From NCBI GenBank assembly GCA_009937505.1, contig JAACFJ010000006.1, forward strand, positions 4,923-68,922: 64,000 nt of DNA. Direction: 5' to 3'. Shown here one piece after another: positions 3,694 to 54,297 of this stretch. A program made the position numbers and the translations under genes. Position 1 is the first letter of the stretch. Each line of letters begins with the position of its first letter. The DNA is from Gammaproteobacteria bacterium. GTDB taxonomy: Bacteria; Pseudomonadota; Gammaproteobacteria; Steroidobacterales; Woeseiaceae. The notes below the pieces were generated by a model. The model did no database searches. It had not been told where the DNA came from and saw only the letters and a program-made list of their open reading frames with translations.

Positions 3694-5063
3694 ATGACGC
3701 CCGCAGAGGTACTAGGCCTCATCAAAGAGAAAGAGGTCAAATTTGTCGACTTTCGGTTCACGGACACGAAAGGAAAGGAACAACACGTCACCGTGCCGTC
3801 GCATACGATCGACGAGGACCTGTTCGAGGACGGCAAGATGTTCGACGGCTCGTCCATCGCCGGATGGAAGGGCATCAACGAGTCCGACATGATCCTGTTG
3901 CCCGATCCCGCGTCCGCCGTGGTCGACATCTTCACGGACGAGGTCACCATGAACCTGCGCTGCAATGTCATCGAGCCGGCGACGATGCAGGGCTATGATC
4001 GCTGCCCGCGGTCGCTGGCAGAGCGTGCCGAGGCCTACCTGAAATCGACCGGCATCGCCGATACCGCTTTCTTCGGCCCCGAGAACGAGTTCTTCGTCTT
4101 CGATCACGTCTCCTGGGACGATTCGATGCAGGGCGCGTTCTACAAGGTCGACTCCGAGGAGGGCGCCTGGAACACGAACCGCAGCCGCGAGGAGGGCAAT
4201 ACCGGGCACCGCCCGACGGTGAAGGGCGGCTATCCTCGATGTGCCTGGCACTGGAAGAGCTGGGGCTCGAGACGGAAGTTCACCACCACGAGGTTGCCAC
4301 GGCGGGCCAGTGCGAGATCGGCGTCAAGTTCAATACGCTGGTGCGCAAAGCGGACGAGGTACAGGTCCTGAAGTACGTCGTGCACAACGTTGCGCACGCT
4401 TATGGCAAGACGTCGACGTTCATGCCAAAGCCGCTCGTCAACGACAACGGCAACGGCATGCACGTGCACCAGTCTTTGTTCAAGGGTGGAGAAAACCTCT
4501 TTACCGGCGACGGCTACGGCGGCCTGTCGGATACGGCGCTGCACTATATCGGCGGCATCATCAAGCACGCCAGAGCCATCAATGCGTTTACGAACCCGGC
4601 CACTAACAGCTACAAGCGGCTGGTACCCGGCTTCGAGGCACCGACGATTCTTGCTTACTCAGCGCGCAATCGCTCTGCGTCAATTCGTATCCCGTACGAG
4701 TCGAATCCGAAGGGCCGGCGCATAGAGGTCCGCTTCCCGGATTCGATGGCCAATCCCTACCTCGCATTCTCGGCCATGATGATGGCCGGTCTCGACGGCA
4801 TCCAGAACAAGATCCACCCGGGGGACGCCATGGACAAGGATCTCTACGACCTGCCGCCCGAGGAGGAGAAACAATTGAAGCTCGTCGCGTTCTCGCTCGA
4901 TGAGGCGCTCGCGGCACTTGATGAGGATCGCGAATTCCTCAAGGCCGGCGATGTGTTTTCCGATGACCTCATCGATGCGTATATCGACCTGAAGATGGAA
5001 AATGTGACGCGACTGCGCATGACCACGCATCCGGTCGAATTCGACATGTACTACAGCCTCTGA
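3694..5063 (+). pseudogene. glnA: Glutamine synthetase type I, interrupted by an internal deletion and frameshift near 4233-4239
   Basis: Two ORFs in different frames together cover a full GS-I: 3694-4371 and 4239-5063. The first ends its homologous part at ...[10 protein letters not shown]. The second resumes at [24 protein letters not shown]. The conserved FPVPPVDS.QD.RS segment between them is missing. The total of 1370 nt is not a multiple of 3. Confidence 0.9.
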
Positions 5064-5080
5064 GGTGTCAAAACTGTGAA

Positions 5081-5104
5081 CCGGGCGGCATTTTAGCCGC
5101 CCGG
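5081..5104 (+). terminator. Stem-loop after glnA (possible terminator or attenuator before the DUF4124-ntrBC genes)
   Basis: CCGGGCGGC-atttta-GCCGCCCGG forms a perfect 9-bp stem 18 nt after the glnA stop. There is no clear T-tract. Confidence 0.4.
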
Positions 5105-5144
5105 TCGCTGCCCCAAATGCGGAATTAATTGCTATGCTAACCGT

Positions 5145-5669
5145 ATGGAATTGCGCTCGGTCTTCATGTTCGTCTGCTTCTTCGCGGCCGCCACCACGGC
5201 GGCACAGGAGGCCTATCGCTGGGTCGATGAAGACGGCGTCGTGCACTATTCCGACCGACCGCGCGAAGGTGCAGAGGCCATCGTGTTGCCAGAGGCCAAT
5301 GTCGCAACGACCCGTCGTATCCCGCAGCCTTCCGCGGCACAGGACGAGGACGACGGGCCGGCCGAAGAGCCGCAAACCGGCTACACCAGTATCGAGGTTG
5401 TCTCGCCCGGGGCGGAAGAAACGCTATGGAACATCGAGGGCGTCCTGAGCGTCTCGGTGGCCCTGCAGCCGGCCCTGCAGCCGGGCCACCAGGTGCGCGC
5501 GTATTTCGACGGCCAGATGCAGCCGGTGAGCGGCACGAGCTTCCAGCTACAGGAAGTCTGGCGGGGAGTCCACAACATCCAGGTGGAGGTGGTGGATGCG
5601 ACCGGCAAGGTGATGATCCGAACTCGGCCGAGCCGCTTCTACGTGCAGCAGAACACGGTGGCGTTTTAG
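5145..5669 (+). CDS. DUF4124 domain-containing secreted protein
   Basis: A signal peptide is followed by the YRWVDEDGVVHYSDRP motif typical of DUF4124. The position between glnA and ntrB recurs in gammaproteobacteria. Confidence 0.75.
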   Translation: MELRSVFMFVCFFAAATTAAQEAYRWVDEDGVVHYSDRPREGAEAIVLPEANVATTRRIPQPSAAQDEDDGPAEEPQTGYTSIEVVSPGAEETLWNIEGVLSVSVALQPALQPGHQVRAYFDGQMQPVSGTSFQLQEVWRGVHNIQVEVVDATGKVMIRTRPSRFYVQQNTVAF

Positions 5670-5746
5670 CCGGCGGCAAGCCCGCGGGCGACGACGGCGA
5701 GATCCGCGATCAGGCAAAGAACATCCTCGACAGCCTGAGCTCAGGC

Positions 5747-6763
5747 GTGATCTTGCTCGACAGGAACCTGCTCATCCTGGGGCTCAACCCCGCCGCGGAA
5801 AACATTCTCGGTATAAGCCAGCGGCGCGCACGCGGTGAATCGCTGTTGAGACTGCTCGAGGACGATCCCGAACTGCGCGACATCCTTAGCCGGGTCAGCG
5901 CAACGGGCGATCACTACGCCAACGAGTTGCGCCTCGGTCCGAACGAGGTCGAAGCGGACGAGCGGATCGTCGACTGCCGCGTGTCGCCGATCGACAGCGG
6001 CCCGGCAACCCTGCTCGTCGAGCTTACCGACGTGACGCGGCGCTCGAAGATCAGCCGGGAAAACGCGCTGCTGATCCAGCACGGCGCCGGCCGGCAGATG
6101 ATCAGGCAGCTCGCCCACGAGATCAAGAACCCGCTCGGCGGCATCCGGGGATCCGCGCAGTTGCTGGCGCGCCAGCTCGACAACGAGGAGCTCACCGAGT
6201 ACACCGACGTCGTGATTAGTGAGACTGACCGTCTCGCGAATCTCGTCGACACCTTACTGGGTCCCGGTGGTGCGCCGAACAAGCAGCCGCTGAATGTGCA
6301 CGAGCTGATCGAGTACGTGGTGCGCATCATCGAGGCGGAAGATCGGCGCTCGCTGCATATTGTCCGCGACTACGACCCGGGGCTGCCGTTGATCGAACTC
6401 GACCGTGACCAGATGGTGCAGGCTTTGCTGAACCTGATGCGCAACGCGGCAGCCGCGCTCGACGGCCAGGGGACAATAACGCTGCGCAGCCGCGCGGTAA
6501 CGAATTTCACCATCGGCGATGCCCGTCACCGCGTCATCGCCAGCATCGAAATCCAGGACGACGGTCCGGGCATCCCGGCGGACCTGCAGGACACCGTGTT
6601 CTACCCGCTCGTTACCAGCAACCCTCATGGAACCGGGCTGGGGCTTCCGGCGGCGCAGGAATTGCTTAGCCGGCATGGCGGCCTGATCGAATTCGAGAGT
6701 CGGCCCGGACGCACCGTATTCTTCGTGCGCATACCGCTCGACCAGAAGGGGCCGCCAGCGTGA
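5747..6763 (+). CDS. ntrB: Nitrogen regulation sensor histidine kinase NtrB (start uncertain)
   Basis: It has the H-box LAHEIKNPLGGIRGSAQLL plus N, G1 and G2 boxes, and overlaps ntrC by 4 nt. 5747 is the first canonical in-frame start (GTG) downstream of the upstream gene's stop. The conserved N-terminal residues (..NILDSLSSG) continue in frame upstream to about 5700 with no ATG, GTG or TTG. The track's ATG at 5426 would overlap the DUF4124 gene by 244 nt. Confidence 0.88.
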   Translation: MILLDRNLLILGLNPAAENILGISQRRARGESLLRLLEDDPELRDILSRVSATGDHYANELRLGPNEVEADERIVDCRVSPIDSGPATLLVELTDVTRRSKISRENALLIQHGAGRQMIRQLAHEIKNPLGGIRGSAQLLARQLDNEELTEYTDVVISETDRLANLVDTLLGPGGAPNKQPLNVHELIEYVVRIIEAEDRRSLHIVRDYDPGLPLIELDRDQMVQALLNLMRNAAAALDGQGTITLRSRAVTNFTIGDARHRVIASIEIQDDGPGIPADLQDTVFYPLVTSNPHGTGLGLPAAQELLSRHGGLIEFESRPGRTVFFVRIPLDQKGPPA

Positions 6764-8160
6764 CGGGCGAGACCCTGAAAGTCTGGGTTGTCGACGACGA
6801 TCAGTCGGTCCGTTGGGTTCTCGAAAAGGCTTTGCGGCAGGAGAAGATGGACACCCGGAGTTTCGAGCGGGCCGAGCATCTGCTCGAAGCCATGGATCTC
6901 GAGTCCCCGGACGTCCTCGTTACGGACGTGCGCATGCCGGGAATGAGCGGCATCGCCCTGCTCGAGGAAGTGAACCGCCGCTGGCCGGGTTTGCCGGTGA
7001 TCGTGATTACCGCCCACTCCGACCTCGAGAGTGCGGTGGCCGCCTACAAAGGCGGCGCTTTCGAGTACCTGCCAAAGCCCTTCGACATCGATGAAGCGGT
7101 AGAGCTCGTCCGGAAGGCCGCGCGCCGCAACGGCCAGGCACCCGAGGAATCCGGCGGGGACAAGCAGGACCTGCCGTCGCTCATCGGCCAGGCGCCCGCG
7201 ATGCAGGAGGTGTTCCGTTCCATCGGCCGGCTGGCCGGCTCGAGCATGACCGTGCTCATCACCGGTGAGTCCGGCACCGGCAAGGAACTCGTTGCCCGCG
7301 CGCTGCACGAACACAGCCCGAGGGCGGGCAAGCCCTTCGTCGCGCTCAATACCTCCGCGATCGCGGCGGAACTGCTGGAGTCCGAGCTTTTCGGTCACGA
7401 GAAAGGCGCATTCACGGGTGCCGATGCCCGACGCATAGGCCGATTCGAACAGGCGGATGGGGGCACGCTGTTTCTCGACGAGATCGGCGACATGTCCCCG
7501 GCATTGCAGACGCGGCTGCTACGCGTGCTGGCGGAAAGCGAGTTCTATCGGGTCGGCGGGCAGCAATCGATCAAGGTCGACGTACGTGTCATCGCAGCGA
7601 CCAACCAGGACCTGGCGCGAGCAGTCAAAGAGTCGCGATTCCGCGAGGACCTGTTCCACCGCCTGAACGTCATTCGCATCAATACCCCGCCGCTCCGTCA
7701 GCGGCGCGCAGACATCCCCCTGCTGCTGAACCACTACCTCGCGGAATCTGCACGCGAGCTGACCGCGTCGGCGAAGTCGGTCGACCCCGAAGCCATGGAA
7801 GTGCTGCAGAGCTACGACTGGCCCGGCAACGTCCGTCAATTGGTGAACGCGACGCGGCGGCTGACGGTGACCGCACCCGGTGGCGTCATCGGTACGCAGG
7901 ACCTGCCTCCGGAAATGGGCGGCACCGTGTCGCAGGAGCGCGCCACGCAGGACTGGACCCGCAGCCTCGCGAGCTGGGCGGAGCGGCAACTCAGCTCGGG
8001 AGAATCGCCCTTGCTCGACCGGGCCCTGCCCGAGTTCGAAAAGACCCTCATCCGCATCGCGATGAGCCAGACCAACGGTCACCGCCAGGAAGCCGCCAGG
8101 CTCCTCGGCTGGGGCCGCAATACCCTGACCCGAAAAATGAAGGCGCTGCACCTCGACTGA
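6760..8160 (+). CDS. ntrC: Sigma-54-dependent nitrogen response regulator NtrC
   Basis: It has a receiver domain (VWVVDDD...DVRMPGMSG), an AAA+ domain with GESGTGKE and GAFTGA, and a C-terminal Fis-type HTH. Confidence 0.95.
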
Positions 8161-8355
8161 TCCTTGCGAGCGCTTCCCGAACCGCGATTGCGCTTGAGCC
8201 CGTCGCTGGGTTCGTCCGCAATTTTCGGTTGAACGTTCGAGGGCGGCCCGGGGCGTTTGTCGACCGAAGTAAAGCGCAGCACAGCGAGCCATGAGGGAGA
8301 CAAATGACCCGGGCCGCCCAACAGGTCAAGCCCAGCCGCGATTCGAGAATCGCTC

Positions 8356-9303
8356 CTACGTCTGCAGCGTTCCGACGAGGTCGGTGACGGAGGCGAAGCC
8401 GTGGCGCTCGAGGTAGTCGAGGATGCCCGCGTTGATCTTCTTGCAGGCGAGCGGGTCATAGAACAAAGCGGTGCCGACGCCGACGGCGGTTGCGCCTGCA
8501 ACGATGAACTCGATCGCGTCGATCGCCGTGCGTATCCCGCCCTGGCCGATGATCGGGATGCGGTGAGGCGCGGCCACTTCGTGCACCTCGTGGACCTTGA
8601 GAAGCGCGATCGGTTTGATTGCCGGGCCCGATAGGCCGCCGCGCACGTTGCCTATGACGGGCTTGCGGGTCTCTGCATCGATGGCCATCCCGGTTACGGT
8701 ATTGATGACCGAAAAACCGTCCGTGCCGGCCTCGATGCACAGTCGAGCATTATCGCGGATGTCGGTCTGGTTTGGTGACAGCTTGGTAAAGATGGGCTTT
8801 GTCGTTTGCGCGCGGCAGGCCGCGACGACACGGGCGGACATCTCCGGATCGTTACCGAACTGCACGCCCCCTTCCTTGACGTTCGGACAGGAGATATTGA
8901 TCTCGATGCCGTCGATCGGCGAGTCATCGAAGCGCCGTGTAACGCGCGCGTACTCGTCGATCGTGGACCCGGAGACGTTGGCGAAGAAGCGCGTTTCGGT
9001 GAAGTCGAGCCCGGGAAGGATCTCTTCCACCACCGTCTCAACGCCGGGATTCTGCAGGCCGATAGCGTTGAGCATGCCCATCGGGGTCTCGTAAACGCGG
9101 TGCGGCGGGTTGCCGAGCCGCGCGCCCCCGGTGGTGCCCTTGAGCACGACGCCGCCGACATCGCGGTTCGAGAAACCCTCGATGCGAGTGTACTCTTCGC
9201 CGAAGCCGACACAGCCGGACAGCAGCACGACCGGCGAATCCATCGATACGCCACAAAGGTCGGTGTGCAGAGGGTTGTTTCGGTGGTTCATCGGATGCGG
9301 CAT
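8356..9303 (-). CDS. Class-1 (PyrD-1B/PreA-like) dihydroorotate dehydrogenase family protein
   Basis: Motifs: SGCVGFG, GLQNPG, IEINISCPNV, GGLSGPAIKPIAL, IIGQGGI. I chose the internal ATG at 9303 (MPHPMNHRNNPLHTDL..) because the longer ORF would overlap trmL. Confidence 0.8.
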   Translation of the reverse strand: MPHPMNHRNNPLHTDLCGVSMDSPVVLLSGCVGFGEEYTRIEGFSNRDVGGVVLKGTTGGARLGNPPHRVYETPMGMLNAIGLQNPGVETVVEEILPGLDFTETRFFANVSGSTIDEYARVTRRFDDSPIDGIEINISCPNVKEGGVQFGNDPEMSARVVAACRAQTTKPIFTKLSPNQTDIRDNARLCIEAGTDGFSVINTVTGMAIDAETRKPVIGNVRGGLSGPAIKPIALLKVHEVHEVAAPHRIPIIGQGGIRTAIDAIEFIVAGATAVGVGTALFYDPLACKKINAGILDYLERHGFASVTDLVGTLQT

Positions 9304-9313
9304 TCTAAACGAT

Positions 9314-9778
9314 ATGTTCAGCCTGATCCTGTACGAGCCGGAGATTCCACCCAATACCGGCAATATTATTCGCCTGTGCGCAAACACCGGCGCCGACCTG
9401 CACCTCGTGGAGCCGCTCGGGTTCGAGCTGGACGAACCGCGGCTGCGCCGCGCGGGCCTCGACTACCGTGAATTCGCACACGTGCAGACCCACGCATCGC
9501 TGGAGGATGCGCTCGCGGCTATCGGCAAGCCGCGCGTATTTGCTCTGAGCACGCGTGGCAGTACCCGCTACGATACGCCACGTTACCGGGCCGGCGATGC
9601 GTTCCTGATGGGGCCGGAGACGCGCGGCCTGCCGCAGGCGTTGCTCGACAGCCTGCCGGAGGAACAAAGGCTGCGGTTGCCGATGAGGGCGGGCAACCGC
9701 AGCCTGAACCTGTCTAACGCCGCCGCCGTCGTCGTCTATGAGGCCTGGCGGCAGCTCGGCTTCGAGCAGGGTGCCTGA
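9314..9778 (+). CDS. trmL: tRNA (cytidine/uridine-2'-O-)-methyltransferase TrmL (SpoU/TrmH family)
   Basis: MFSLILYEPEIPPNTGNIIRLCANTGADLHLV...SLNLSNAAAVVVYEAWRQ matches the characteristic TrmL sequence. The ATG at 9314 lies inside the longer track ORF. Confidence 0.85.
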   Translation: MFSLILYEPEIPPNTGNIIRLCANTGADLHLVEPLGFELDEPRLRRAGLDYREFAHVQTHASLEDALAAIGKPRVFALSTRGSTRYDTPRYRAGDAFLMGPETRGLPQALLDSLPEEQRLRLPMRAGNRSLNLSNAAAVVVYEAWRQLGFEQGA

Positions 9779-11254
9779 TCAGGCGGCAGGCTCGATGTTG
9801 CTGTTGAGCCGGAACAGGTTACCGGGGTCGTGCTGCGCCTTGATCTTCGCCAGGCGTGAGTAGGCAGGACCGTAGTTGCCGGCCGCCGCGCCGCCATCGA
9901 ACTCGATGTTGTCGTAATAGCCACCCATGTAGGGCTTCAGTGCGGCGTACTGCGCCTTCGTAGCCTGGATCATCTCCTGGTCCATCGCCGGGTCGCCCCA
10001 GCCGGTCACGAAAACGAGCATGAGCTCGGCATTGCGGTGCGGAAACGCGGTGTCGGTCTCACCGACGCGCTTCACGGCCCCGCCGGCGACGTGGTTGGTG
10101 AGGAACATGCGCGGATCGTAGGCATCGATCAGCGCATCGACGAGCCCCTGCGACCATTCCCTGACCATGCCGTTCTTGGCATAGGACCGGACGCCGTGAG
10201 CCATCATCGCGTCGGCGCTCGTCTGCATGATCATGTAATCCTGCATCGCCACGCCGTCCGCCACCGGTTTGCCGATCGCCCTGAGCGGCGCGAGCTCTTT
10301 CTCCCCGGCAGCCGGATCGCCGTTATAGACAATTTCCATGATGACCGAGTCGCCGACTTCGGGCAGCCTCGCCAGGGAGGGCCCTACGTACAGCTCATCC
10401 GAGAGGCCGGCCGACCATTCGGCATAGAACTCGAGTACGTCGCGCGCCTGCTCCAATGGCCATACGATGTTGCCGGACAGGACGTTGCGGTCGAACGGGT
10501 GGAGCTGGTATTCGAATTCGGTTACGACGCCGAAGTTTCCGCCGCCGCCACGGATCGCCCAGAAAAGGTCGGGTTCTTCGTCCGCAGAAATCCAGCGGGC
10601 CTGGCCGTCGGCCGTGACGATCCGGGCCCCGGTAACATTGTCGATGGTCAGGCCGTACTTGCGGTTGAGCCGGCCGAATCCGCCGCCCAGCGTGTAACCG
10701 CCACAGCCCGTGTGCGAAACCACGCCGGCGGTCGTCACCATGCCTTTCTCGAGAGCCGCCGAGTCCAGCCCGTTCAGCAAGGCGCCACCCTGCGCGCGAG
10801 CGCGCCGGGTGTCTGCGTCTGCCGTGACGGTATTCATTTGCGACAGGTCGATCATGAGGCCGCCGTCGCAAACCGACTTGCCGGGCCAGCTGTGGCCGCC
10901 GCCGCGCACCGCGACGAGCAGGTTGTTGTCGGAAGCAAAACTGACGGCGTTGCCGACGTCCTCGGCATTCATGCAGCGCGCGATCAAGGCCGGGCGCTTG
11001 TCGTGCATGCCGTTCCAGATCATGCGGGCTGAGTCGTACTGCGGATGCCCGGAGAGCATTACGGGACCCGACGAGGCATCGCCGAGCTCCCTGATGGCCG
11101 CTTTCGTCAGTTCGATTTCCGCGCCGTCGAGAGAAATGGCGGTGATGCCCATGTCGGCTTGTGTCGCAACCGGTGTTTCTTTGCCGCAGCCCGGCAGGAA
11201 TGCCGCGGCTACGCCAGCAGCAACCGCAGACCGGCAGAATTGACGTCTGTCCAT
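9779..11254 (-). CDS. Tat-exported FAD-linked oxidase with a BBE-like C-terminus
   Basis: The N-terminus has a twin-arginine motif and a lipobox (MDRRQFCRSAVAAGVAAAFLPGCG). The FAD_binding_4-type core includes VAVRGGGHSW. The C-terminus (YDNIEF...DPGNLFRLNSNI) is typical of berberine-bridge-like domains. Confidence 0.8.
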   Translation of the reverse strand: MDRRQFCRSAVAAGVAAAFLPGCGKETPVATQADMGITAISLDGAEIELTKAAIRELGDASSGPVMLSGHPQYDSARMIWNGMHDKRPALIARCMNAEDVGNAVSFASDNNLLVAVRGGGHSWPGKSVCDGGLMIDLSQMNTVTADADTRRARAQGGALLNGLDSAALEKGMVTTAGVVSHTGCGGYTLGGGFGRLNRKYGLTIDNVTGARIVTADGQARWISADEEPDLFWAIRGGGGNFGVVTEFEYQLHPFDRNVLSGNIVWPLEQARDVLEFYAEWSAGLSDELYVGPSLARLPEVGDSVIMEIVYNGDPAAGEKELAPLRAIGKPVADGVAMQDYMIMQTSADAMMAHGVRSYAKNGMVREWSQGLVDALIDAYDPRMFLTNHVAGGAVKRVGETDTAFPHRNAELMLVFVTGWGDPAMDQEMIQATKAQYAALKPYMGGYYDNIEFDGGAAAGNYGPAYSRLAKIKAQHDPGNLFRLNSNIEPAA

Positions 11255-11359
11255 GTTGAACCCCCCAATATTTCCTGAGCGCTTAGCTTATAGGACCTAC
11301 TGCCCTATAAGGGAAAAGTTTAGACGAAAGCCGGAAATTAGCCAGCTGACAGGGGCCGC

Positions 11360-12313
11360 TCAGCGAACGAGTTCCGTGTCCGGATGAAACGTGTACCAGG
11401 CAAACCAGAACAGGCGCGTGGGCGTGTAGCGACCGCCGTGCTGGTCTCGGGCGGTGACCGAGCCGTCTTCCCCCATTTCGGCAACGAGCTCCAGATCACC
11501 GGACGTATGGGCATGTTTGCCGCCGTCATCGAGCAGCGATGCCGTGTAGGCGACAGAGCGACCGTCGACGTCGAAGCCGTATACGACGGTTTTCGGATGA
11601 ATCCTGTCGTCCTCGTTATTGACCGGAAACATGATTCCGTCGGAGCCCCGGTACCGTGCGTACCGGTCCGTGGAGTAATCGATCGAGTGGCCCGTGTCGG
11701 TTGACAATATCCGGGTATCGGGGTGCGCCTCGCGCCAGCGTTCCCAGGTGGTCATCGTTACGGGCACGAGTGCCAGGGTTTCGCCGGTTCTCCGGCCAAC
11801 GATTCCCTTCGCCTCGATCTGGTCCCAAAGCGTCTCGCTTGCGCGGTCGTAGAGCACGAGATCGCTGTTGTACAGGAGGCCCGAGACCCCGAACTCGGTG
11901 AGTTCGCCGGCAATTTCCCGGCGGATACCGACCGCCGAACCGCACAGCGGACACCAGGTGATGGCAACCGGGATGCCGCCGATCGTATCGTTCACTATTT
12001 CGTGGCGATCCATGATGCGCGCCGGATAGGCGCGGTGATCGCCGTTCAGCGCAATCGCGATGACCGGGTCGTCGTCGGCCACGTGCGATGCGGCATCCGC
12101 GGCAACGTATTTGGGGTCGTCGATGGAGGGAATGCAGTCGCGAGCGGGGCAGCCCTGGTGGAGATCCTCCAGCGCTACCGACTTCGGCGTCGATTCGTCG
12201 AAGCCAAAGGTATCGGCGAGAATATCGGTATCGTACGTTCGCTCTGCTGCCGCCGTGTACAGTGGCAGAGCTGCGCAGCAAACGGCGAACGCCGAGAGCA
12301 ATCGGGTCATCAC
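11360..12313 (-). CDS. DUF3179 domain-containing secreted protein
   Basis: It has a signal peptide and the motifs DCIPSIDDPKYV, AYP, TWCPLCGS and LLYNSDLVLYD. Confidence 0.75.
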   Translation of the reverse strand: MMTRLLSAFAVCCAALPLYTAAAERTYDTDILADTFGFDESTPKSVALEDLHQGCPARDCIPSIDDPKYVAADAASHVADDDPVIAIALNGDHRAYPARIMDRHEIVNDTIGGIPVAITWCPLCGSAVGIRREIAGELTEFGVSGLLYNSDLVLYDRASETLWDQIEAKGIVGRRTGETLALVPVTMTTWERWREAHPDTRILSTDTGHSIDYSTDRYARYRGSDGIMFPVNNEDDRIHPKTVVYGFDVDGRSVAYTASLLDDGGKHAHTSGDLELVAEMGEDGSVTARDQHGGRYTPTRLFWFAWYTFHPDTELVR

Positions 12314-12332
12314 TTTCCCCTGTGTTGGTTTG

Positions 12333-13346
12333 TCAGTGTTCTGACTTCAGGTCGCGGCGCATGAGTGCGCCGACTGCCTCGCGGGGTGATGCGCCGTCGT
12401 AAAGGATGCGATAGACCTGGTAGCAGATCGGCATTTCGATCCCGAGTTTCTCGGCAACCTCGTGCACGGCTTCCGCGGCCAGGACGCCTTCGACGACCTG
12501 TTGAATGTCTTCCTGCGCTTCCTCGACGGATTTGCCTTCCGCCAGCGCGAGGCCCATGCGGCGGTTACGAGACAGGTTGTCGGTACATGTGAGCATTAGA
12601 TCGCCCATGCCGGCCAGGCCCATGAAGGTTTCGCGCTTCGCGCCGAGCGCCACGCCCAGTCTTGTCATTTCGACAAGGCCGCGCGTAATAAGTGCCACGC
12701 GGGTATTCGCGCCGAAACCGAGGCCATCGGACATGCCGGCACCGATGGCGAGTACGTTCTTGACGGCGCCGCCCACCTCGACCCCGACCATGTCGTCCGA
12801 GGTGTAGGCGCGGAAATTGTCGCCCGAAAGTGTCACCGCAAGATCCTGCGCAAACGCCGCGTCGTTGGCCGCGATCGTGAGCGCGGTCGGCAACCCCTGA
12901 CCAACTTCCTTGGCGAACGTCGGGCCGGACAAGACGGCGACCGGCCGGTCGGCGCCGAGAACCTCGGCTGCGACCACGTGGGGAAGTTTCCCGGTGTGCA
13001 GTTCGAAGCCCTTCGTAGCCCAGCAGATTCTTGCGCCATTCTTCAACGACGGCCTGATGGCCTCGAGGGTCTCGCGGAAACCATGGCTGGGTACGGCGAC
13101 GAGGATATCGCCGACGCCTTCGAGACATTCGTCGAGCCCGACGAACGCCTGGACATTATCCGGAAAAGTCGCGCCCGGCAGATAACGCGCATTCACGCGT
13201 TCCTCGCGCATCTTTGCGAGCTGGATACGGTCGCGGCCCCAGAGCCTGATCGGCCGCCCGCATCTCGCGAACTGCAGCGCAAGCGCGGTCCCCCAGGAGC
13301 CCGCACCGAGGACCGCAATCGGCTGTGAGTGAGCGTCGCTTATCAG
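12333..13346 (-). CDS. gpsA: NAD(P)H-dependent glycerol-3-phosphate dehydrogenase (start codon unresolved)
   Basis: The body is strongly GpsA-like (GPTFAKEV, GGAVKNVLAIGAGMSDG, GDLMLTCTDNLSRNRR). The dinucleotide-binding motif PIAVLGAGSWGTALA is encoded in frame upstream of the first ATG (13211). No ATG, GTG or TTG exists between it and the secB stop, only CTG, ATA and ATT. Confidence 0.88.
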   Translation of the reverse strand: MISDAHSQPIAVLGAGSWGTALALQFARCGRPIRLWGRDRIQLAKMREERVNARYLPGATFPDNVQAFVGLDECLEGVGDILVAVPSHGFRETLEAIRPSLKNGARICWATKGFELHTGKLPHVVAAEVLGADRPVAVLSGPTFAKEVGQGLPTALTIAANDAAFAQDLAVTLSGDNFRAYTSDDMVGVEVGGAVKNVLAIGAGMSDGLGFGANTRVALITRGLVEMTRLGVALGAKRETFMGLAGMGDLMLTCTDNLSRNRRMGLALAEGKSVEEAQEDIQQVVEGVLAAEAVHEVAEKLGIEMPICYQVYRILYDGASPREAVGALMRRDLKSEH

Positions 13347-13825
13347 TGTGTCTCCGCCGCCGAGGCTGCTTCCGCCTGTTGCTGCTGCATCGATTGCTGG
13401 TACAGCGCATCGAAGTTGATGGGCTGCAGGACGAATTCGGGGAAGCCGCCCTTCTGGATAATCCCGGCGATCGCCTCACGCGCATAAGGGTATAACACGC
13501 CCGGGCAGAAACTGCCGATGAGTACGCTCATTTCCTCTTTCTCGTAGCCGCCGATCTCGAACAATCCGGCCTGCTGCAGTTCCACCAGGAAGATCGTCTT
13601 GTCGGTTTCTTTTTCCTTGGCATCGACGGTAATTGTCAGCACGACCTCATGCAGCGAATCGCTGACCGGCGAGTGCGAGCTGCGAAGGTTCAGGTTCGTG
13701 CTGGGCGCCCACTCTTTTGCATTGAAGACACTCGGTGTCAGCGGAGATTCGAAGGAAAAATCCTTGACGTAGATCTTTACGACGGAAAGATGTTTCTCGG
13801 GGGTCTGTGCTTCCTGTTCAGCCAT
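13343..13825 (-). CDS. secB: Protein-export chaperone SecB
   Basis: The 160-aa ORF carries typical SecB sequence (VKIYVKDFSFESP...LFEIGG...PYAREAI). Confidence 0.95.
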   Translation of the reverse strand: MAEQEAQTPEKHLSVVKIYVKDFSFESPLTPSVFNAKEWAPSTNLNLRSSHSPVSDSLHEVVLTITVDAKEKETDKTIFLVELQQAGLFEIGGYEKEEMSVLIGSFCPGVLYPYAREAIAGIIQKGGFPEFVLQPINFDALYQQSMQQQQAEAASAAETH

Positions 13826-13839
13826 GTTCTTTTCCTGGT

Positions 13840-14133
13840 CTAATGAGAATGCTGGCCGGCAGTCTCGCCGGCGAGCAGTTTATCCAGTTTGCCGCTTTTA
13901 TCGAGCGAACACACTTCGTCGAAACCGCCGACGTGGACGTCGCCGACAAATACCTGTGGAACCGTGCGACGGCCGCCGCTGCGCTCTTGCATTTCATCGA
14001 AGCGGGCCGGATCCCTTGACACAAGGATGTCTTCGAACTTGATGCCCTTGCGTGTGAACAACATCCGAGCGGCCGCGCAGTATGCGCAGAACTCGTCGCC
14101 GTAGATGACCACCGGAATCTTTTCGTTCTTCAC
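13840..14133 (-). CDS. grxC: Glutaredoxin 3
   Basis: VVIYGDEFCAYCAAARMLFTRKGIKFEDI...RRTVPQVFVGDVHVGGFDE matches glutaredoxin 3. I chose the GTG start at 14133 because it lies just after the rhodanese stop. The active site reads CAYC rather than the usual CPYC. Confidence 0.85.
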   Translation of the reverse strand: MKNEKIPVVIYGDEFCAYCAAARMLFTRKGIKFEDILVSRDPARFDEMQERSGGRRTVPQVFVGDVHVGGFDEVCSLDKSGKLDKLLAGETAGQHSH

Positions 14134-14144
14134 GGAACCGGCGC

Positions 14145-14594
14145 CTATTTCTTGCTCTTGCTCTTGGTCTTCTTGCCGGACACCACCGGCAATCCGGCCT
14201 GGCCCCATGCGCCCATGCCGCCCTTCAGGTTGTAGACACTCTCGAAACCGGAGTTGCGCAGGGTGTTTACTGCCTTCGATGACGTTACGCCGGCGTCGCA
14301 GACGGCGACGACGGGTTTGTTGCGAAACTTTGCCAGTTTTTCCAGGTGGCCATCCAGCTCGTCCATGGGAACGTTGCGGGCGCCGACGATATGGCCGCGC
14401 AGGAATGACTCCGAGCTGCGCAGGTCCAGCACCACTGCATCGTTGTTGATGAGCTTGACGGCGTCCGTTGGTGCAACCGCCAGCATGCCGGTGGCTTTGC
14501 GCCTGAGCTCGGTAAATATGACCAGCAGGAAACTGGCCACCAGCGCAAACACCAGCAAAGTATGGCTGCCGGCGAACTCCAATAATCTGTCCAT
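14145..14594 (-). CDS. Membrane-anchored rhodanese-domain protein
   Basis: It has an N-terminal transmembrane helix and a rhodanese fold with the catalytic loop VAVCDAGVTSSKA. The internal ATG (MDRLLEF) was chosen as start. Confidence 0.8.
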   Translation of the reverse strand: MDRLLEFAGSHTLLVFALVASFLLVIFTELRRKATGMLAVAPTDAVKLINNDAVVLDLRSSESFLRGHIVGARNVPMDELDGHLEKLAKFRNKPVVAVCDAGVTSSKAVNTLRNSGFESVYNLKGGMGAWGQAGLPVVSGKKTKSKSKK

Positions 14595-14695
14595 GAGGCG
14601 TCGTGTGCGCGGGCTGCGCAAGGTTGGTCGAAAGGCGGCATTATAGCAGCGCCCGGCGATGGAAATACCCCGCAAACGATCTACACTGTGCGCCC

Positions 14696-15815: not shown

Positions 15816-15921
15816 GTCGGCTTGGCCGAACTTGTCGGTCCTCACAGTACAGCGCCCACGGACTGTGGTATCGTCATTTGAACCGGCCGGGCAATGAAAC
15901 GGCCGGCGTGCGGAGTTGTGT

Positions 15922-17142: not shown

Positions 17143-17876
17143 CGTTTGCGCAATTCCGCGCCGCCGCGATCCTTCTGTTGCTCGCGTCGCAGAGTTTCGC
17201 GCAGTCCGTGCCGCGCATCGCAATCATCATCGATGATCTCGGCTACCAGATGGCGGCGGGGCACCGTGCCGTAGCGTTGCCCGGTCCGGTGGTCTGCGCG
17301 ATCCTGCCCGGCACGCCAAGGGCGGCGCAGCTGGCGCAGGCCGCCTGGGAGCGCGGCAAGGAAGTACTCCTGCACCTGCCGCTGCAGTCCGTCGATCATC
17401 ACGGCGCGGCAGAACCGGGCTCGATTACCCTCGATACGACTCGCGAGGGCTTCGCCCAGACCTTCACGATTGCGATGGAATCCGTGCCTTTCGCCGTGGG
17501 CGTCAACAGCCATCGCGGTAGCCTGCTCACGCAGCACCCGGGCCACATGAGCTGGCTGATGGAGGAAATTCTCCGGGCCGGCGGGCTCTACTTCGTCGAC
17601 AGCTACACCACGCATCGCAGCGTCGCGCTGCAGATCGCATCGGAGCGAGGCGTGCCGGCGATCAAGCGGGACGTGTTCCTGGATTCGGATCCGGCGCCCG
17701 AAAAGGTCGCGCAGGAGTTCGAGCGCCTCAAGGCGCTGGCGCGGGAGCGCGGACTCGCGGTGGGCATCGGACACCCTTACCCCGAGACGCTGGCGTTCCT
17801 GGAACGGGCGATCCCGAGCCTTGTCGAAGAAGGCATACAGCTGGTACCGCTTCGTGAACTGATAGACTTTCCCTGA
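17139..17876 (+). CDS. yibQ: Divergent polysaccharide deacetylase family protein (YibQ-like)
   Basis: A signal peptide is followed by [10 protein letters not shown]...HLPL...NSHRGS. An ATGA overlap with the ctpA stop fits the envC-ctpA-yibQ order known from enterics. Confidence 0.8.
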
Positions 17877-21349: not shown

Positions 21350-21358
21350 TGCGCGTCC

Positions 21359-35267: not shown

Positions 35268-35352
35268 GAAGCGCGCAAGTTTAGCAGGATTGCGCACGGA
35301 TTCGGGCGTCGAGAAAACCGCGTCTGGGGGGGCAAAGATCGGCCGGGAACGA

Positions 35353-38882: not shown

Positions 38883-38963
38883 CGCACCGCTGAGTGTATA
38901 GCTACTGTCACCCCCTTCGGCAAGGACGTGTCCTGCTATTCTTGCAGAAAAGCAGCGGTTTTG

Positions 38964-49705: not shown

Positions 49706-50890
49706 TCAGGACGGGAACGCCCGGCGCCATCCCGACAGCCCGCTATCCAGGTTATGCACTAGCGCATAACCGCGCTTTATCAGCGACTCCGCGGCGAGCA
49801 GGCTCCGGCTCCCCGTTGCGCAAAAGATGACCAGGCTGGACGAGGGATGGAACGGTACGCCGTTTGCGAGCAGTTCGTTCAGCGGGATGTGTTCGGATCC
49901 GGGCAGGCTGTCTGCAAGACGTTCGTGCGTGTCGCGCACGTCGATGAAAACAGCATCTGCCGACTCGAGGAGCTCGGCGGCCTCGACAGGCGATATCTGT
50001 GGGACCAGCGAATCCGGCGCAGCTCCGACGCCGCAGAACGCGTTGTAGTCGACGAGTTCCGTGATCGTGGGGTCGTGCCCGCAGATCGCACACCGCGGGT
50101 CTTTCTGCACATTGAAGCTCGAAAACGCGAGCGCCAGCGCATCGTAATGCACGAGCCTGCCGCTTGCGATCTCGCCGAGGCCGAGCACCAGCTTGATGAC
50201 CTCGGTTGCCTGCAGCGTACCCATCACGCCGGGCAGGACTCCGAGCACACCGCCCTCTGCGCAGGAAGGAGCCATGCCTGGCGGAGGTGGGATGGGAAAC
50301 AGGCAGCGGTAGCAGGGTCCGTCGCCATGGTTGTAGACTGAAAGCTGTCCCTCGAAGGCGAGTATCGATGCCGACACCAGCGGTTTGTTCTCGAGCACGC
50401 AAGCATCGTTGACGAGGTAGCGCGTTGCAAAATTATCGGCGCCGTCGGCGACGAGGTCGTAACGCGAGATGATCTCTCTCGCATTATCGCGGCTTAGTGC
50501 GCAAGCGTGTTCGTCAAAGTCGACGTGCGGGTTCAGGTCGCGAAGCCGCTCTGCGCCACAGGCGAGTTTTGCCATGCCGACCTGGCTGCTGCCGAACAGA
50601 ATCTGGCGGTGCAGGTTCGATGCATCCACGGAGTCGAACTCGACAATGCCGATACGGCCTAAACCGGCGGCCGCCAGGTACATCGCCAATGGTGAGCCGA
50701 GCCCGCCCAGCCCGACGAGTAGCACGGAAGCGCCCTTGAGCCGAGCCTGACCCTCCGGACCCACTTCGCGAAGGCTCAGGTGCCGGCTGTAGTGTGCCAG
50801 CTCGCGTTCCGTGAATGTATCCAACTTACCTGGCACCGAACCCTTACCTGTCTCCGCCCGTCCACCGATTTTGATCATAGCAGCTGCCAC
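49706..50890 (-). CDS. moeB: ThiF/MoeB-type adenylyltransferase fused to a C-terminal rhodanese domain (MoeZ/MoeBR-like)
   Basis: HYSRHLSL...VLLVGLGGLGSP is the nucleotide-binding motif. CxxC pairs (CYRC, CAIC) are present. The C-terminal rhodanese domain has the active loop IFCATGSRS. Confidence 0.85.
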   Translation of the reverse strand: MAAAMIKIGGRAETGKGSVPGKLDTFTERELAHYSRHLSLREVGPEGQARLKGASVLLVGLGGLGSPLAMYLAAAGLGRIGIVEFDSVDASNLHRQILFGSSQVGMAKLACGAERLRDLNPHVDFDEHACALSRDNAREIISRYDLVADGADNFATRYLVNDACVLENKPLVSASILAFEGQLSVYNHGDGPCYRCLFPIPPPPGMAPSCAEGGVLGVLPGVMGTLQATEVIKLVLGLGEIASGRLVHYDALALAFSSFNVQKDPRCAICGHDPTITELVDYNAFCGVGAAPDSLVPQISPVEAAELLESADAVFIDVRDTHERLADSLPGSEHIPLNELLANGVPFHPSSSLVIFCATGSRSLLAAESLIKRGYALVHNLDSGLSGWRRAFPS

Positions 50891-50917
50891 CCGCGAAGAT
50901 TCTGCTACTATTTTTCA

Positions 50918-51661
50918 ATGGCTGAATCCGATTCATTCGATAGGCGCAAGTTCATCAAGGCTTGTGTAGGCGCGGGTGCTGCGGTGGCAGCGGATCCGTC
51001 TCTGATGGCGCAGCCCGCCGGCGAACTTGTGCCGGCCGAGCGGGTCAGGCTGGTGGACGCCGACGAGAAGACACTGCTGCCCGAAGCGCTGGCGGTGGGC
51101 CAGAGTTACGTCTTTCACTACCCCTACGTCACGACACCGTGTTTCCTGATCGACCTGGGTTTACCCACGGAACCCGGCGCCGAGCTCGAAACCTCGGACG
51201 GCCGTCCGTATCGATGGTCCGGCGGCGTCGGGCCCGGCCGCTCGATCGTCGCGTTCTCGGCGATCTGCGCACACCGGATGAGCTACCCGACGCGCAATGT
51301 CAGCTTCATCGACTACCGCCACAAGCCCATGAACACCGAGGCACCGGGCAACGACTGGTGGTCACGCGGGCAGGTTATCTATTGTTGTTCGGAAGGTAGC
51401 GTCTACGATCCGAGCGACGGGGCCCGCGTGCTGGCGGGGCCTGCACCGCAGCCACTTGCAGCCGTGCGCCTCGAGTATGACGATGATGAAAAAGCGCTTT
51501 ATGCGACCGGCGTCTACGGTGGCGATATGCTCGAGCGGTTTCTTACCGAATTCGGCTTCCAGGTTGCCCTTGCGCACAAGCGTGATGACATCCGGCACCC
51601 CGCGCGGAATGTAACCACTGTCTGGCCTATGAGCGAATATTCGCGCACGGGCGCCTGCTAG
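50918..51661 (+). CDS. Tat-exported Rieske-like domain protein with a degenerate second cluster-binding box
   Basis: The Tat motif is SFDRRKFIKACVGAGAA. The first Rieske box CAH is present (AICAHRMSY). The second box reads YCCSEGSVYD instead of CPCHGSxFD. Confidence 0.6.
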   Translation: MAESDSFDRRKFIKACVGAGAAVAADPSLMAQPAGELVPAERVRLVDADEKTLLPEALAVGQSYVFHYPYVTTPCFLIDLGLPTEPGAELETSDGRPYRWSGGVGPGRSIVAFSAICAHRMSYPTRNVSFIDYRHKPMNTEAPGNDWWSRGQVIYCCSEGSVYDPSDGARVLAGPAPQPLAAVRLEYDDDEKALYATGVYGGDMLERFLTEFGFQVALAHKRDDIRHPARNVTTVWPMSEYSRTGAC

Positions 51662-52305
51662 GAATTGTCGGTCCCTTCGAGGTATTCCGCTATGTCGGCG
51701 TGGCCCGCCGACCGTGCGATCGTTGCTGCGGTATTGCCATTCCGATCCTCGGTAGCACGGTCTGCGCCATGAGACAGGAGTAACCGGATCATCCCGAGGT
51801 CTCCGCTCGCGGCGGCAATGTGCAGTGCGGTCGCACCGTCCTCCTGGCGAACGCCGAGGTCGGCGCCGGGGCTCTCTAGCAGCAGTCGCACAAAGTCGAG
51901 GCGGCGCCTGTCGACGGCGCGCATCAATGGCGTCCATCCATAGGTATCGCGAACCCCCTGGTCCGCTCCGGCATCGAGCAGGACCTCGGCCACCCCCGTG
52001 TATCCCTTGACCGCGGCCAGTGCGAGGGCCGTCCAGCCGAGCTTGGCCTTGCTGTCCGTGCGTGCACCCGCCTTCACGAGCAGGCTCGTCACCAGCGGGT
52101 CGCCGCTGAGCGCCGCGAACATCAGCGCCGTTGCGCCGCCGGCATTACTGGCATTCACGTCGGCGCCTGCCGAGATGATTCGTGCGACGGCAGCGGCATC
52201 ACCCTGCCGCGCTGCGGACATCAGCGGGGTTTTCCCTTCGGCATCCGGGTCCTGCAGCAACTGGCCACCAGCGGTGGCGAAGGGCAGGCCCAGAAACAAC
52301 AACAC
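51658..52305 (-). CDS. Ankyrin-repeat protein, probably exported
   Basis: At least five ANK repeats are present (GKTPLMSAARQGD..., GATALMFAAL, GWTALALAAVKG, GWTPLMRAV, GATALHIAAASG, GNTAATIA). The start was set at the GTG at 52305, just after the FDH terminator, which gives a short hydrophobic leader. The exact start is uncertain. Confidence 0.75.
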   Translation of the reverse strand: MLLFLGLPFATAGGQLLQDPDAEGKTPLMSAARQGDAAAVARIISAGADVNASNAGGATALMFAALSGDPLVTSLLVKAGARTDSKAKLGWTALALAAVKGYTGVAEVLLDAGADQGVRDTYGWTPLMRAVDRRRLDFVRLLLESPGADLGVRQEDGATALHIAAASGDLGMIRLLLSHGADRATEDRNGNTAATIARSAGHADIAEYLEGTDNS

Positions 52306-52308
52306 AAC

Positions 52309-52336
52309 GAAAAACCGGCCGGCAAAAGCCGGCCGG
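52309..52336 (-). terminator. Rho-independent terminator after the formate dehydrogenase gamma subunit
   Basis: On the - strand, CCGGCCGGC-tttt-GCCGGCCGG is followed by TTTTTCG, about 30 nt past the stop at 52367. Confidence 0.7.
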
Positions 52337-52366
52337 TCCGTTAGTGGTTTATCGGTCCGCCGTGGT

Positions 52367-53425
52367 TCAGGTCGCGGGGGCACTCGACGCGCCCGGAGCT
52401 GCCTCGCCTTCCGCAGGCGCAGCGCTACCCTTGACTTCTTCGTACCAGACGCTGTGATGCTGCCTGGCAAAGCCTTCGTCGACTTCGCCGCTCACCATGC
52501 CCTCGAGTACGCCTTCGGTGCCGACGCTGCCGAGATAGATGTGCCCCAGCGCAACGGCAATCAGGAACAGCCCGGAGGAAGCGTGAATGATGTGCCAGAA
52601 CTGCATCGATTCCCGTACAGTTTCAAGATTCGGGAACAGCAAATAGACACCCGAGAGCGTCATTGCGACCCCGCCCAGGAAAATCATCCAGTAGAAGACT
52701 TTTTCACCGGCGTTAAAGAAACCGGCCGGCGGATGACCGTCACCGATCGCGCCGCCCAGGGACTTCAGCCACTCGAAGTCGTAGCTCTTCACGCTGTTTT
52801 TACCAATCCACATGAGCAACATCAGGAACAGGCCTGCGGCAAAAGGCAGTGCGAGATAGTCGTGGACGGGTTTTGCTATCTGCGCCCAGGCGGCAAAGCC
52901 CTCCTTGCCCATCAACGGAATGAGTACGTTCTTTCCGAAGATCAGGCTGAGGCCGGTAATCGCCAGGATTATGAACGAGATGGCGACATACCAGTGCATC
53001 ACGCGTTCGAACGTCGACCAGCGCGTTATCGTGCGCCCGGTGCGTGACTCGAGCTTGTCCTTGCCCTTGACGATGTGCTTCGCCGCAAGCAAGAGTAGTA
53101 CGGCGATGATCAGCGACGCACCATAGAAAGACACCGGGCCGTTTCGAACCGCGCGCCAGTTCTGCCCGCCATTCTGAATCAGCACGCCGGTCTCCTGGCC
53201 CGACACGGCAGAGTACCCTTCGGTGCCGCCACGCACGGCACGCCAGTATTCAGCACGCGGATTCACGGCTTCCTTGTCCGCATCCTCGGCCGCCAGCGCC
53301 AGGCCGGCGTCGTGGGCGAAATACCCTGTCAGCGGTAATGCCATGGAAACCATCAGCGACACTACGACAGTAACGAGGACGGCACGACGGCGGCCCCGTT
53401 GTTTGCTAGTTTTTTGTTCGCGCAT
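52367..53425 (-). CDS. Formate dehydrogenase gamma (cytochrome b) subunit with a periplasmic N-terminal extension
   Basis: It has an FdnI/Ni-Fe-hydrogenase b-type cytochrome pattern (RWSTFERVMHWYVAISFIILAITG, conserved His residues, four transmembrane helices). It is the last gene of the FDH operon. Confidence 0.85.
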   Translation of the reverse strand: MREQKTSKQRGRRRAVLVTVVVSLMVSMALPLTGYFAHDAGLALAAEDADKEAVNPRAEYWRAVRGGTEGYSAVSGQETGVLIQNGGQNWRAVRNGPVSFYGASLIIAVLLLLAAKHIVKGKDKLESRTGRTITRWSTFERVMHWYVAISFIILAITGLSLIFGKNVLIPLMGKEGFAAWAQIAKPVHDYLALPFAAGLFLMLLMWIGKNSVKSYDFEWLKSLGGAIGDGHPPAGFFNAGEKVFYWMIFLGGVAMTLSGVYLLFPNLETVRESMQFWHIIHASSGLFLIAVALGHIYLGSVGTEGVLEGMVSGEVDEGFARQHHSVWYEEVKGSAAPAEGEAAPGASSAPAT

Positions 53426-53497
53426 TGACCAGGCTCCTGTTTGCGCCACGACCCCAGCCGGGTCGCGGCGTCCATTCGCTTCTCCGGACCGGCCTGG

Positions 53498-53722
53498 CTA
53501 CCGGTCCGACTGCCCCTTGGCAAATCGCTCCTGCAGTGTCTGGATTTGCTGCGGATTCTGCTGCTTTGCCAGCAGCGGGTCCACGCCACCCTTGTAGACA
53601 CCCGGTTCGTGCAAGGTTACGTCCGCCCGTTCCGCACAGGCGGTCAAGCTCATCGACATAACAGTGAGGGCCAGCGCCGTTGCCAGCTGGCGCTGCCCCT
53701 TTTTCTTGACTGTTGTCATCAT
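53498..53722 (-). CDS. Small lipoprotein (74 aa) inside the FDH operon
   Basis: MMTTVKKKGQRQLATALALTVMSMSLTAC carries a lipobox. It lies between the Fe-S and cytochrome b subunit genes. Confidence 0.5.
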   Translation of the reverse strand: MMTTVKKKGQRQLATALALTVMSMSLTACAERADVTLHEPGVYKGGVDPLLAKQQNPQQIQTLQERFAKGQSDR

Positions 53723-53747
53723 TTTTATTCCCGCAACGCCCAGTAGA

Positions 53748-54297
53748 TCAGGCGTCGCCCTTGTAGGCGGTCTCCCAGCCCCAGGTCTCGGGGCGTCCGC
53801 CGCGCTTCGTAATCCGCTCGCGGTAAATGTCTGCAACCATATCACCGTCGCCCGCAAGCAGAGCCTTCGTGCTGCACATCTCGGCGCACAGTGGCAGCTT
53901 GCCCTCGGCAATACGGTTTTGACCGTACTTCTCGAGCTCGGCGGCGGAGTTGTTGTCCTCGGGACCGCCCGCGCAGAACGTGCACTTGTCCATCTTGCCG
54001 CGCACGCCAAAGGCCTCCTGCTGCGGGAACTGCGGTGCCCCGAACGGGCAGGCATAGAAGCAGTAGCCGCAACCGATGCAGAGATCCTTGTCGTGCAGGA
54101 CGATGCCGTCGTCGGTCGTGTAGAAACAGTCGACCGGGCACCGATACCGATTTCTCACCGGGAACACCGTCATCGAGAGTCACGACGCGGCGCCTGTTGA
54201 CGCCCCATGGAACTTCGTGCTCGTTCTTGCAGGCCGTTACACAACCGTTGCACTCGATGCAGCGCTCGGCGTCACAAAGAAATTTCATACGTGCCAT
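53748..54297 (-). pseudogene. Formate dehydrogenase iron-sulfur (beta) subunit, interrupted by an internal deletion and frameshift near 54140-54141
   Basis: The N-terminal frame reads MARMKFLCDAERCIECNGCVTACKNEHEVPWGVNRRRVVTLDDGVPGEKSVS. The C-terminal frame resumes at CPVDCFYTTDDGIVLHDKDLCIGCGYCFYACPFGAPQF...KCTFC. The expected ..ACMHC.DAPC.. cluster motif between them is absent. The 550 nt are not divisible by 3. Confidence 0.85.

Follow-up and report, generated by a model that had tools for sequence, protein, structure and literature searches.

Five short blunt losses in conserved genes of a Woeseiaceae metagenome-assembled genome most probably reflect local misassembly

The 64-kb window, i.e., the whole stretch of DNA analysed here, lacks short pieces of conserved coding sequence at five positions, with blunt losses of 36, 40, 41, 41, and 54 nt. 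Based on the comparison among assemblies, we consider these losses to be local misassemblies in the public NCBI metagenome-assembled genome (MAG) record, with a probability of roughly 0.93, and neither products of excision nor of pseudogenisation. The organism itself almost certainly carries intact genes for glnA, envC, the alpha and beta subunits of formate dehydrogenase (FDH), and the TorD-like chaperone. The original prediction described frame-shifting lesions in three of these genes (glnA, envC, and the FDH Fe-S subunit) and favoured a technical artefact at assembly junctions. This preference is borne out because each of the five junctions is private to the source record and shared by no other same-population assembly, independent assemblies are intact, and other assemblies carry lesions of their own, often at contig ends or strain forks.

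We compared the window with near-identical contigs of the same population (99.7–100% identity), with about 10–20 assemblies covering each site, and with a more distant relative, a Woeseiaceae MAG of approximately 72–75% DNA identity (L001). Junctions 1 and 2 were sized by Megablast breaks against ten contigs (L081–L090). A scan of the metagenome_contigs collection gave only relatives of at most 90% identity, which were useless for sizing the lesions and showed joins flagged by NN. Junction 1 is located at 4232/4233 within glnA (3694–5063, forward strand), where 40 nt are missing and the reading frame shifts. The missing piece, CTTCCCGGTACCGCCGGTCGACTCGCTGCACGATCTTCGT, is present as exactly 40 extra nt in the ten near-identical contigs as well as in L001 and encodes (Y)FPVPPVDSLHDLR(S); the intact glnA product in relatives consists of 469 aa with the Gln-synt_N and Gln-synt_C domains. 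Junction 2 is located at 15567/15568 within an envC-like peptidase M23 gene (14696–15815, forward strand), where the loss of 41 nt also shifts the frame; the intact protein in relatives comprises 386 aa with a Peptidase_M23 domain. The bases missing at both junctions are present in 10/10 same-population loci.

Junction 3 resides at 54140/54141, with a placement ambiguity of 1 nt, in the gene of the FDH Fe-S (beta) subunit (53748–54297, reverse strand), from which 41 nt are missing with a frame shift. The intact subunit, found in L100, L103, L190, and L192, consists of 196 aa with a Fer4_11 domain. Re-adding 40, 41, and 41 nt restores the lengths of 469, 386, and 196 aa observed in the relatives, so the sizes originally proposed for the three frame-shifting lesions were exact, and the lesions themselves are confirmed at the positions given above. 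The bases lost at junction 3 are present in 13 of 15 same-population loci, and the two exceptions (Ga0493823_54091 and Ga0493762_09617) show losses of other sizes at this site.

Junctions 4 and 5 add two losses of similar size to the three originally described. At 54760/54761 in the FDH alpha (molybdopterin) subunit gene (54309–57155, reverse strand), 54 nt are missing in frame, shortening the protein by 18 residues from 966 to 948 aa; the missing bases are present in 15/15 same-population loci, and the 948-aa form is a singleton in NCBI nr, found on one contig. The same-population assembly GCA_041551595.1 covers junctions 1–4 and is intact at all four. At 57424/57425, 36 nt are missing from the TorD-like chaperone gene (57409–58098, reverse strand), and the stop codon is lost, which extends the product from 225 to 229 aa. 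The same loss removes most of the spacer upstream of a 69-aa TAT-signal gene (57210–57419). The bases missing at junction 5 are present in 10/10 same-population loci, and the 229-aa variant occurs on a single contig, as compared with 52, 15, 13, and more contigs carrying intact 225-aa forms (NCBI, JGI, ENA, and Logan). In NCBI nr, the FDH alpha and TorD-like products that carry the lesions each come from a single 69,241-nt contig, and exact-product look-ups of both variants returned no gene positions because they are singletons from one NCBI contig. Look-ups of the GlnA N-terminal fragment and of a 627-aa ORF likewise returned no gene positions, and the searched protein collection contained no frameshifted fragments. 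A gene of 556 aa is called in the relatives, and the 627-aa ORF is probably an overextended version of it.

The five losses share blunt ends and little else. Neither a boundary motif nor direct or inverted repeats were found at the five junctions, and the homology across them amounts to 0–1 nt, so the search for shared microhomology or motifs suggested with the original prediction came back empty. Slippage and microhomology-mediated deletion are ruled out by the same blunt boundaries. The GC content of the lost segments ranges from 43 to 78%, with no consistent feature among them, which lends no weight to an explanation by GC content or hairpins. The proposal of one common loss of about a k-mer does not hold, as the sizes span 36–54 nt in the window and 14–112 nt elsewhere. 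Against the closest relative (L086), the window shows 6 SNPs in 21.2 kb, no small indels, and two large blunt deletions, a spectrum unlike that of natural gene decay. More generally, there are no indels of 1–10 nt relative to same-strain contigs, at an SNP divergence of about 0.03–0.1%. Near-identical MEGAHIT-type contigs from ENA and NCBI, covering approximately 340 kb, contain no indels of at least 10 nt, and the five losses in 64 kb can therefore not be attributed to chance.

The same class of error appears in other assemblies. Contigs of the JGI Ga0493xxx series carry 13 private losses of 9–112 nt in about 207 kb, at sites other than those of the window, and Ga0452215 carries two private losses. 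A literature search on the JGI sample identifiers was without result. Several of these sites are hotspots: three lesions and two contig ends fall at 54026/54027, three lesions and one MEGAHIT contig end at 54140/54141, and lesions and contig ends also coincide at 34889/34890, 35181/35182, and 35295/35296. Where assemblies share a hotspot, their lesions have one boundary in common and differ in the other. Altogether, lesion boundaries match contig ends or strain forks elsewhere at junctions 3 and 4 and at four hotspots of other assemblies. At the gaps of JABA-named metagenome contigs (L111, L118, and L176), which are written as "NN", 44–74 nt are missing or 29–44 nt are duplicated. The N runs in two further contigs (L054 and L076) are ordinary scaffold gaps of 20–100 nt and are uninformative.

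The coincidence with strain forks is closest at junction 3. Seven SNPs within 40 nt divide two co-occurring haplotypes, and position 54141, where the loss begins, is precisely the first of them. Losses of 28 and 69 nt in L105 and L106 begin at the same base, and one MEGAHIT contig (L198) terminates at 54139. At junction 4, two contigs (L103 and L104) stop about 20–25 nt into the missing piece, and a variant haplotype in L101 starts 8 nt ahead of it. Haplotype switches occur in assemblies around both junctions. At junctions 1, 2, and 5, the retrieved relatives showed neither contig ends nor strain variation. A role of forks is demonstrated for junctions 3 and 4 only.

Taken as local misassembly, the losses could have arisen when the assembly graph broke at short untraversable stretches, for instance where co-occurring strains fork or coverage is thin. 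The flanking contigs would then have been joined end to end, minus 36–54 nt and without N placeholders, possibly by a scaffolder or gap closer, during bin reassembly, or when short N runs were deleted ahead of submission. We infer that the five junctions lack read support. The narrow band of 36–54 nt in the window counts against this reading, which offers no specific explanation for it.

As for the last of these steps, N placeholders or flagged spans in the original scaffolds might have been removed, and the flanks fused, ahead of submission, so that each deletion would mark a true unassembled gap. We regard this variant as possible, though doubtful. It is in line with the JABA-named records, in which "NN" stands exactly at sites missing 44–74 nt, with the blunt boundaries free of microhomology at all junctions, and with the left boundary of junction 3, which is the last shared base before the strain fork and hence a natural end of a de Bruijn contig. 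However, proteins in nr are translated straight through junctions 4 and 5, and the public record therefore contains no Ns there. Any stripping must thus predate submission, which leaves the originally suggested loss of ambiguous bases possible at that stage; its occurrence during preparation of the window is not supported and is rejected for junctions 4 and 5. The Ga-named loci contain no N anywhere in about 1.5 Mb, as would be expected after stripping and equally from an assembler that emits no Ns.

Alternatively, the segments could really be gone from the sampled strain, which would then belong to a decaying or mutator lineage. The deposited sequence does contain the deletions, and three of them break the reading frame, as in pseudogenes. 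Nevertheless, five deletions of 36–54 nt would have accumulated at the low SNP divergence noted above and in the absence of small indels, they would affect central genes such as glnA and envC, and none of them is common to any other assembly of a widespread population. Moreover, each lesion-prone assembly carries a different set at about one lesion per 13–16 kb, which would amount to hundreds of broken genes per genome. Real gene loss is accordingly highly improbable. It is slightly less probable still that the hotspots in uvrD (34835–35322) and FDH beta/alpha (53966–54814) represent real deletion variants segregating in Woeseiaceae populations, e.g., from failed recombination between strains of about 10% divergence, with some assemblers reporting minority alleles, in which case some lesions would be biological. 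Programmed or site-specific excision of elements of about 40 nt, which the original prediction already considered the lesser option and which three losses of 40–41 nt might recall, can practically be dismissed because the length is not constant (36–54 nt here, 14–112 nt elsewhere), the boundaries lack any conserved motif or repeat, one end at shared hotspots is fixed while the other varies between assemblies, and the lost pieces, rather than being inserted elements, are ancestral DNA that encodes conserved protein blocks and occurs in L001 as well.

The original prediction also connected the missing start codons of ntrB and gpsA with the same type of lesion. The absence of canonical starts is real, but the proposed connection fails, since neither 5′ region shows an indel against ten same-population assemblies and L001 is arranged alike. 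In gpsA (5′ region 13211–13346, reverse strand), the conserved N-terminus is encoded without ATG, GTG, or TTG, as there is no such in-frame codon from the upstream stop at 13478 to 13211. Positions 13319–13290 encode the Rossmann motif IAVLGAGSWG; the ATT at 13319–13317 aligns with an ATG in another relative (L002), and a CTG at 13346–13344 overlaps the stop codon of secB (CTGA). In ntrB (5′ region 5670–5749, forward strand), no canonical start occurs between the stop of the upstream DUF4124 gene (5667–5669) and the GTG at 5747, and the only in-frame canonical starts are this GTG and a codon at 5426, located 244 nt inside the DUF4124 gene. The coding sequence of the conserved ILDSLSSG block precedes GTG 5747, and the ntrB region is identical in all ten assemblies.

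The more distant L001 shares both arrangements, with conserved N-terminal coding sequence ahead of the first canonical start; in its ntrB, the positions of the GTG and TTG of the window are ATT and CTG, and a canonical start is absent there, too. The comparison thus indicates that the missing canonical starts are a genuine property of the lineage, separate from the deletions. Bacterial genes are known to use non-canonical starts, such as the ATT of E. coli infC and rare CTG starts. As in such genes, the conserved N-terminal residues of gpsA and ntrB are encoded ahead of the first ATG, GTG, or TTG, and the candidate initiation codons are CTG or ATT for gpsA and possibly the ATC at 5702 for ntrB. 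The CTGA overlap of gpsA with secB has the same geometry as an ATGA coupling overlap.

The importance of the five losses lies in quality control rather than in biology. With a lesion about every 13 kb, false pseudogenes or shortened proteins in the source MAG would number on the order of hundreds; one example in NCBI nr is the 948-aa FDH alpha lacking 18 residues. Anyone inferring metabolism from this MAG and concluding "no glutamine synthetase" or "inactive formate dehydrogenase" would be mistaken. Since the JGI assembly series shows the same error class at similar density, genome scans will keep yielding findings of "recurrent lesions" unless these are checked against sibling assemblies.

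The lesions resemble the pseudogenes of reductive evolution in that frame-shifting deletions interrupt conserved genes; unlike those, they are accompanied by no small indels, premature stops from point mutations, or raised divergence, and they are unshared even at 99.9% identity. Gene sequences in MAGs are known to be corrupted by local assembly errors, as documented previously (Chen et al., 2020, Genome Res; PMC7111523). As in the cases described there, the window would contain short, read-unsupported consensus at strain heterogeneity or scaffolding joins, and such errors have reached public databases as truncated or frameshifted genes. The present losses differ in being clean, 36–54 nt long, and without an N placeholder, and they are recognised here by comparing assemblies, whereas the defining test in that study is the reads (Chen et al., 2020; PMC7111523). 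The scaffold joins of the JABA-named records are marked by NN, whereas the window and the JGI Ga0493xxx loci are unmarked at the join; in both, tens of nucleotides are missing between correctly ordered contigs, on the same scale.

The window covers a gammaproteobacterial housekeeping region with a GC content of ~62%. Within the genome collection searched, the Woeseiaceae MAG L001 is its nearest species-level relative, syntenic over window positions 78-18803 with ~69-78% DNA identity and 79% protein identity for NtrC. Exact-protein look-ups retrieved 39 loci that share 99.7-100% identity with the window and jointly span all of it; they derive from no fewer than 25 independent metagenome assemblies (ENA, JGI, NCBI). 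A 448-nt stretch (21214-21661) without direct alignment lies inside two ORFs, whose starts, stops, and lengths agree with the relatives' calls.

Comparison with these relatives confirmed the recurrent internal losses of the original prediction and extended them from three lesions to five. The glnA gene has lost 40 nt at 4232/4233, where the GlnA translation, normal up to this point, continues in another frame, and the Peptidase_M23 (envC-like) gene has lost 41 nt at 15567/15568. Megablast alignments break cleanly at both sites, the extra 40 and 41 nt being present in 10/10 same-population contigs; L001 likewise has these 40 and 41 nt. The FDH Fe-S gene has lost 41 nt at 54140/54141, as seen by comparison with relatives. 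Because restoring the lost nucleotides gives the intact products called in relatives (GlnA, 469 aa; Peptidase_M23, 386 aa; the Fer4_11 protein, 196 aa), the three predicted lesions and their sizes are exactly right. The relatives also exposed two lesions of the same type overlooked in the prediction: the FDH alpha subunit has lost 54 nt in frame at 54760/54761 (966 to 948 aa), and a TorD-like chaperone gene has lost 36 nt at 57424/57425, including its stop codon and the spacer before a small TAT-signal gene (225 to 229 aa).

The five lost segments are ancestral coding DNA with unremarkable GC content. All five joins are blunt, and the proposed search for shared microhomology or motifs yielded 0-1 nt of homology and no common motif at the five joins. 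Between the window and L086, its closest sibling contig, there are 6 SNPs over 21.2 kb, zero small indels, and two large deletions. None of the five losses is present in any other assembly compared. By exact-sequence look-up, the 229-aa TorD variant occurs on one 69,241-nt contig only, sourced from NCBI/nr alone, and intact 225-aa forms occur on 52, 15, 13, and more contigs from NCBI, JGI, ENA, and Logan. The 69,241-nt contig also encodes the 948-aa FDH alpha subunit, a singleton cluster; since both variants come from this contig, the lesions sit in the public NCBI record itself. The frameshifted fragments were not found in the protein collection, as would be expected if they are annotated as pseudogenes in that record.

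Local misassembly is the best-supported account of the five losses. The assembly graph may have broken at short untraversable stretches, which would be strain forks for the two FDH junctions only (54140/54141 and 54760/54761), and the flanks would then have been joined with the intervening bases left out. Candidate steps are a scaffolder or gap closer, bin reassembly, or removal of short N placeholders prior to submission. We consider this last variant rather unlikely as the specific route; the public record contains no Ns, at least at 54760/54761 and 57424/57425. The literature documents such local assembly errors in MAGs, along with their spread as wrong gene sequences (PMC7111523). The artefact favored in the original prediction was supported by the privacy of the losses to one record and by the same error class and contig-end boundaries in other assemblies. 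Its common, k-mer-sized loss was not, as the sizes vary (36-54 nt in the window and 9-112 nt elsewhere). Genuine deletion of the ancestral sequence is very improbable and programmed excision is scarcely credible: both are contradicted by this privacy, a spectrum wrong for decay, the variable sizes, and hotspots at which one lesion boundary is fixed and the other variable. The five losses are not a biological feature.

The boundaries recur among assemblies. Three different lesions have their right edge at 54026/54027, where two contigs also end, and 54140/54141 is the left edge of lesions in the window and in two other loci (L105, L106) as well as a MEGAHIT contig end (L198). Lesions are also paired with contig ends at 34889/34890, 35181/35182, and 35295/35296. 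The 5' part of uvrD and its upstream region (34835-35322) form a hotspot, where three contigs end and four JGI assemblies carry different losses (14, 40, 55, 74, and 27 nt); no loss affects the window there. Just upstream of uvrD, L092, L104, and L100 have one G fewer in a G7 run (35326-35332), through either polymorphism in homopolymer length or sequencing error.

Two co-occurring haplotypes, ~10% divergent, exist for the FDH operon, and assemblies switch between them near 54140/54141 and 54760/54761. A run of seven SNPs within 40 nt begins at position 54141, so the piece lost from the window there is essentially this SNP cluster. The operon (50082-55403) is a strain-mosaic hotspot with 86-90%-identical blocks in otherwise 99.9%-identical contigs (L193, 50082-54760; L100, 54139-54760; L199, 54215-54760; L101, 54761-55403), suggesting either that co-occurring strains have recombined or that the assemblies are chimeric. 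A further contig, L177 (LKGT01004292.1), contains >100 single N characters at 563-6549, many at multiples-of-3 spacing, as if a strain consensus had been masked at ambiguous third codon positions.

The canonical start codons reported missing from gpsA and ntrB are indeed absent; their attribution to similar deletions failed, as neither 5' site shows an indel against ten same-population assemblies. From the stop at 13478 to 13211 on the minus strand, gpsA has no in-frame ATG, GTG, or TTG, and it encodes IAVLGAGSWGTALA from 13319, upstream of any canonical start. A CTG at 13346 shares bases with the secB stop (CTGA), a geometry like ATGA-type translational coupling, and the ATT at 13319 aligns with an ATG in the locus L002. 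L001 shares both CTGA and ATT (L001 about 15480-15520). Lacking a canonical start in this conserved arrangement, the protein is shortened by gene callers to 287-292 aa, with loss of the Rossmann motif. ntrB (plus strand) has just two in-frame canonical starts: 5426, deep in the DUF4124 gene, and 5747, past the conserved ILDSLSSG block; gene callers pick the latter (338 aa). Upstream, the open frame extends 244 nt into the DUF4124 gene as far as the ATG at 5426, which L001 also has. At the window's GTG (5747) and TTG positions, L001 has ATT and CTG and hence likewise no canonical start there. Synonymous differences upstream in L001 indicate translation of the ILDSLSSG block, and ATC at 5702 is one candidate start. 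Judged from sequence, the lineage seems to start both genes at sites that are truly non-canonical or not yet resolved. Gene calling also differs at about 38475-39806 (L091 3233-4564, L092 3289-4752), where ENA calls one 443-aa EamA ORF and JGI calls a 280-aa EamA plus an opposite-strand 179-aa sigma-70 (ECF) gene; the DNA is identical, and this is a gene-calling discrepancy.

Private losses also occur in contigs of the JGI Ga0493xxx series and Ga0452215: L088 (44 and 49 nt), Ga0493830_16229 (55 and 61 nt), L101 (14 and 31 nt), L102 (40, 74, 112, and 60 nt), Ga0493823_54091 (27, 28, and 15 nt), and Ga0493762_09617 (69 nt). In glyQ, L083 (Ga0493824_20242) has an in-frame loss of 9 nt (window 2618-2626; 307 aa vs. 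310), perhaps a natural variant, perhaps a minor error at a join. Counting this one, the Ga0493xxx series totals ~13 losses in 207 kb; no loss of at least 10 nt was found across ~340 kb of near-identical ENA/NCBI contigs (MEGAHIT k141, SPIRE-style scaffolds). The value of the five losses lies in the warning they give about this record and the lesion-prone assembly series. JABA-prefixed WGS metagenome contigs contain two-base 'NN' runs (L111:5038, L118:8699, L176:3844, L136:1511 and 3441); compared with sibling contigs, the joins marked by these runs either omit 44-74 nt or repeat 29-44 nt, and the number of Ns is no guide to the size of the gap. These are the same kind of join as those in the window, but openly flagged.
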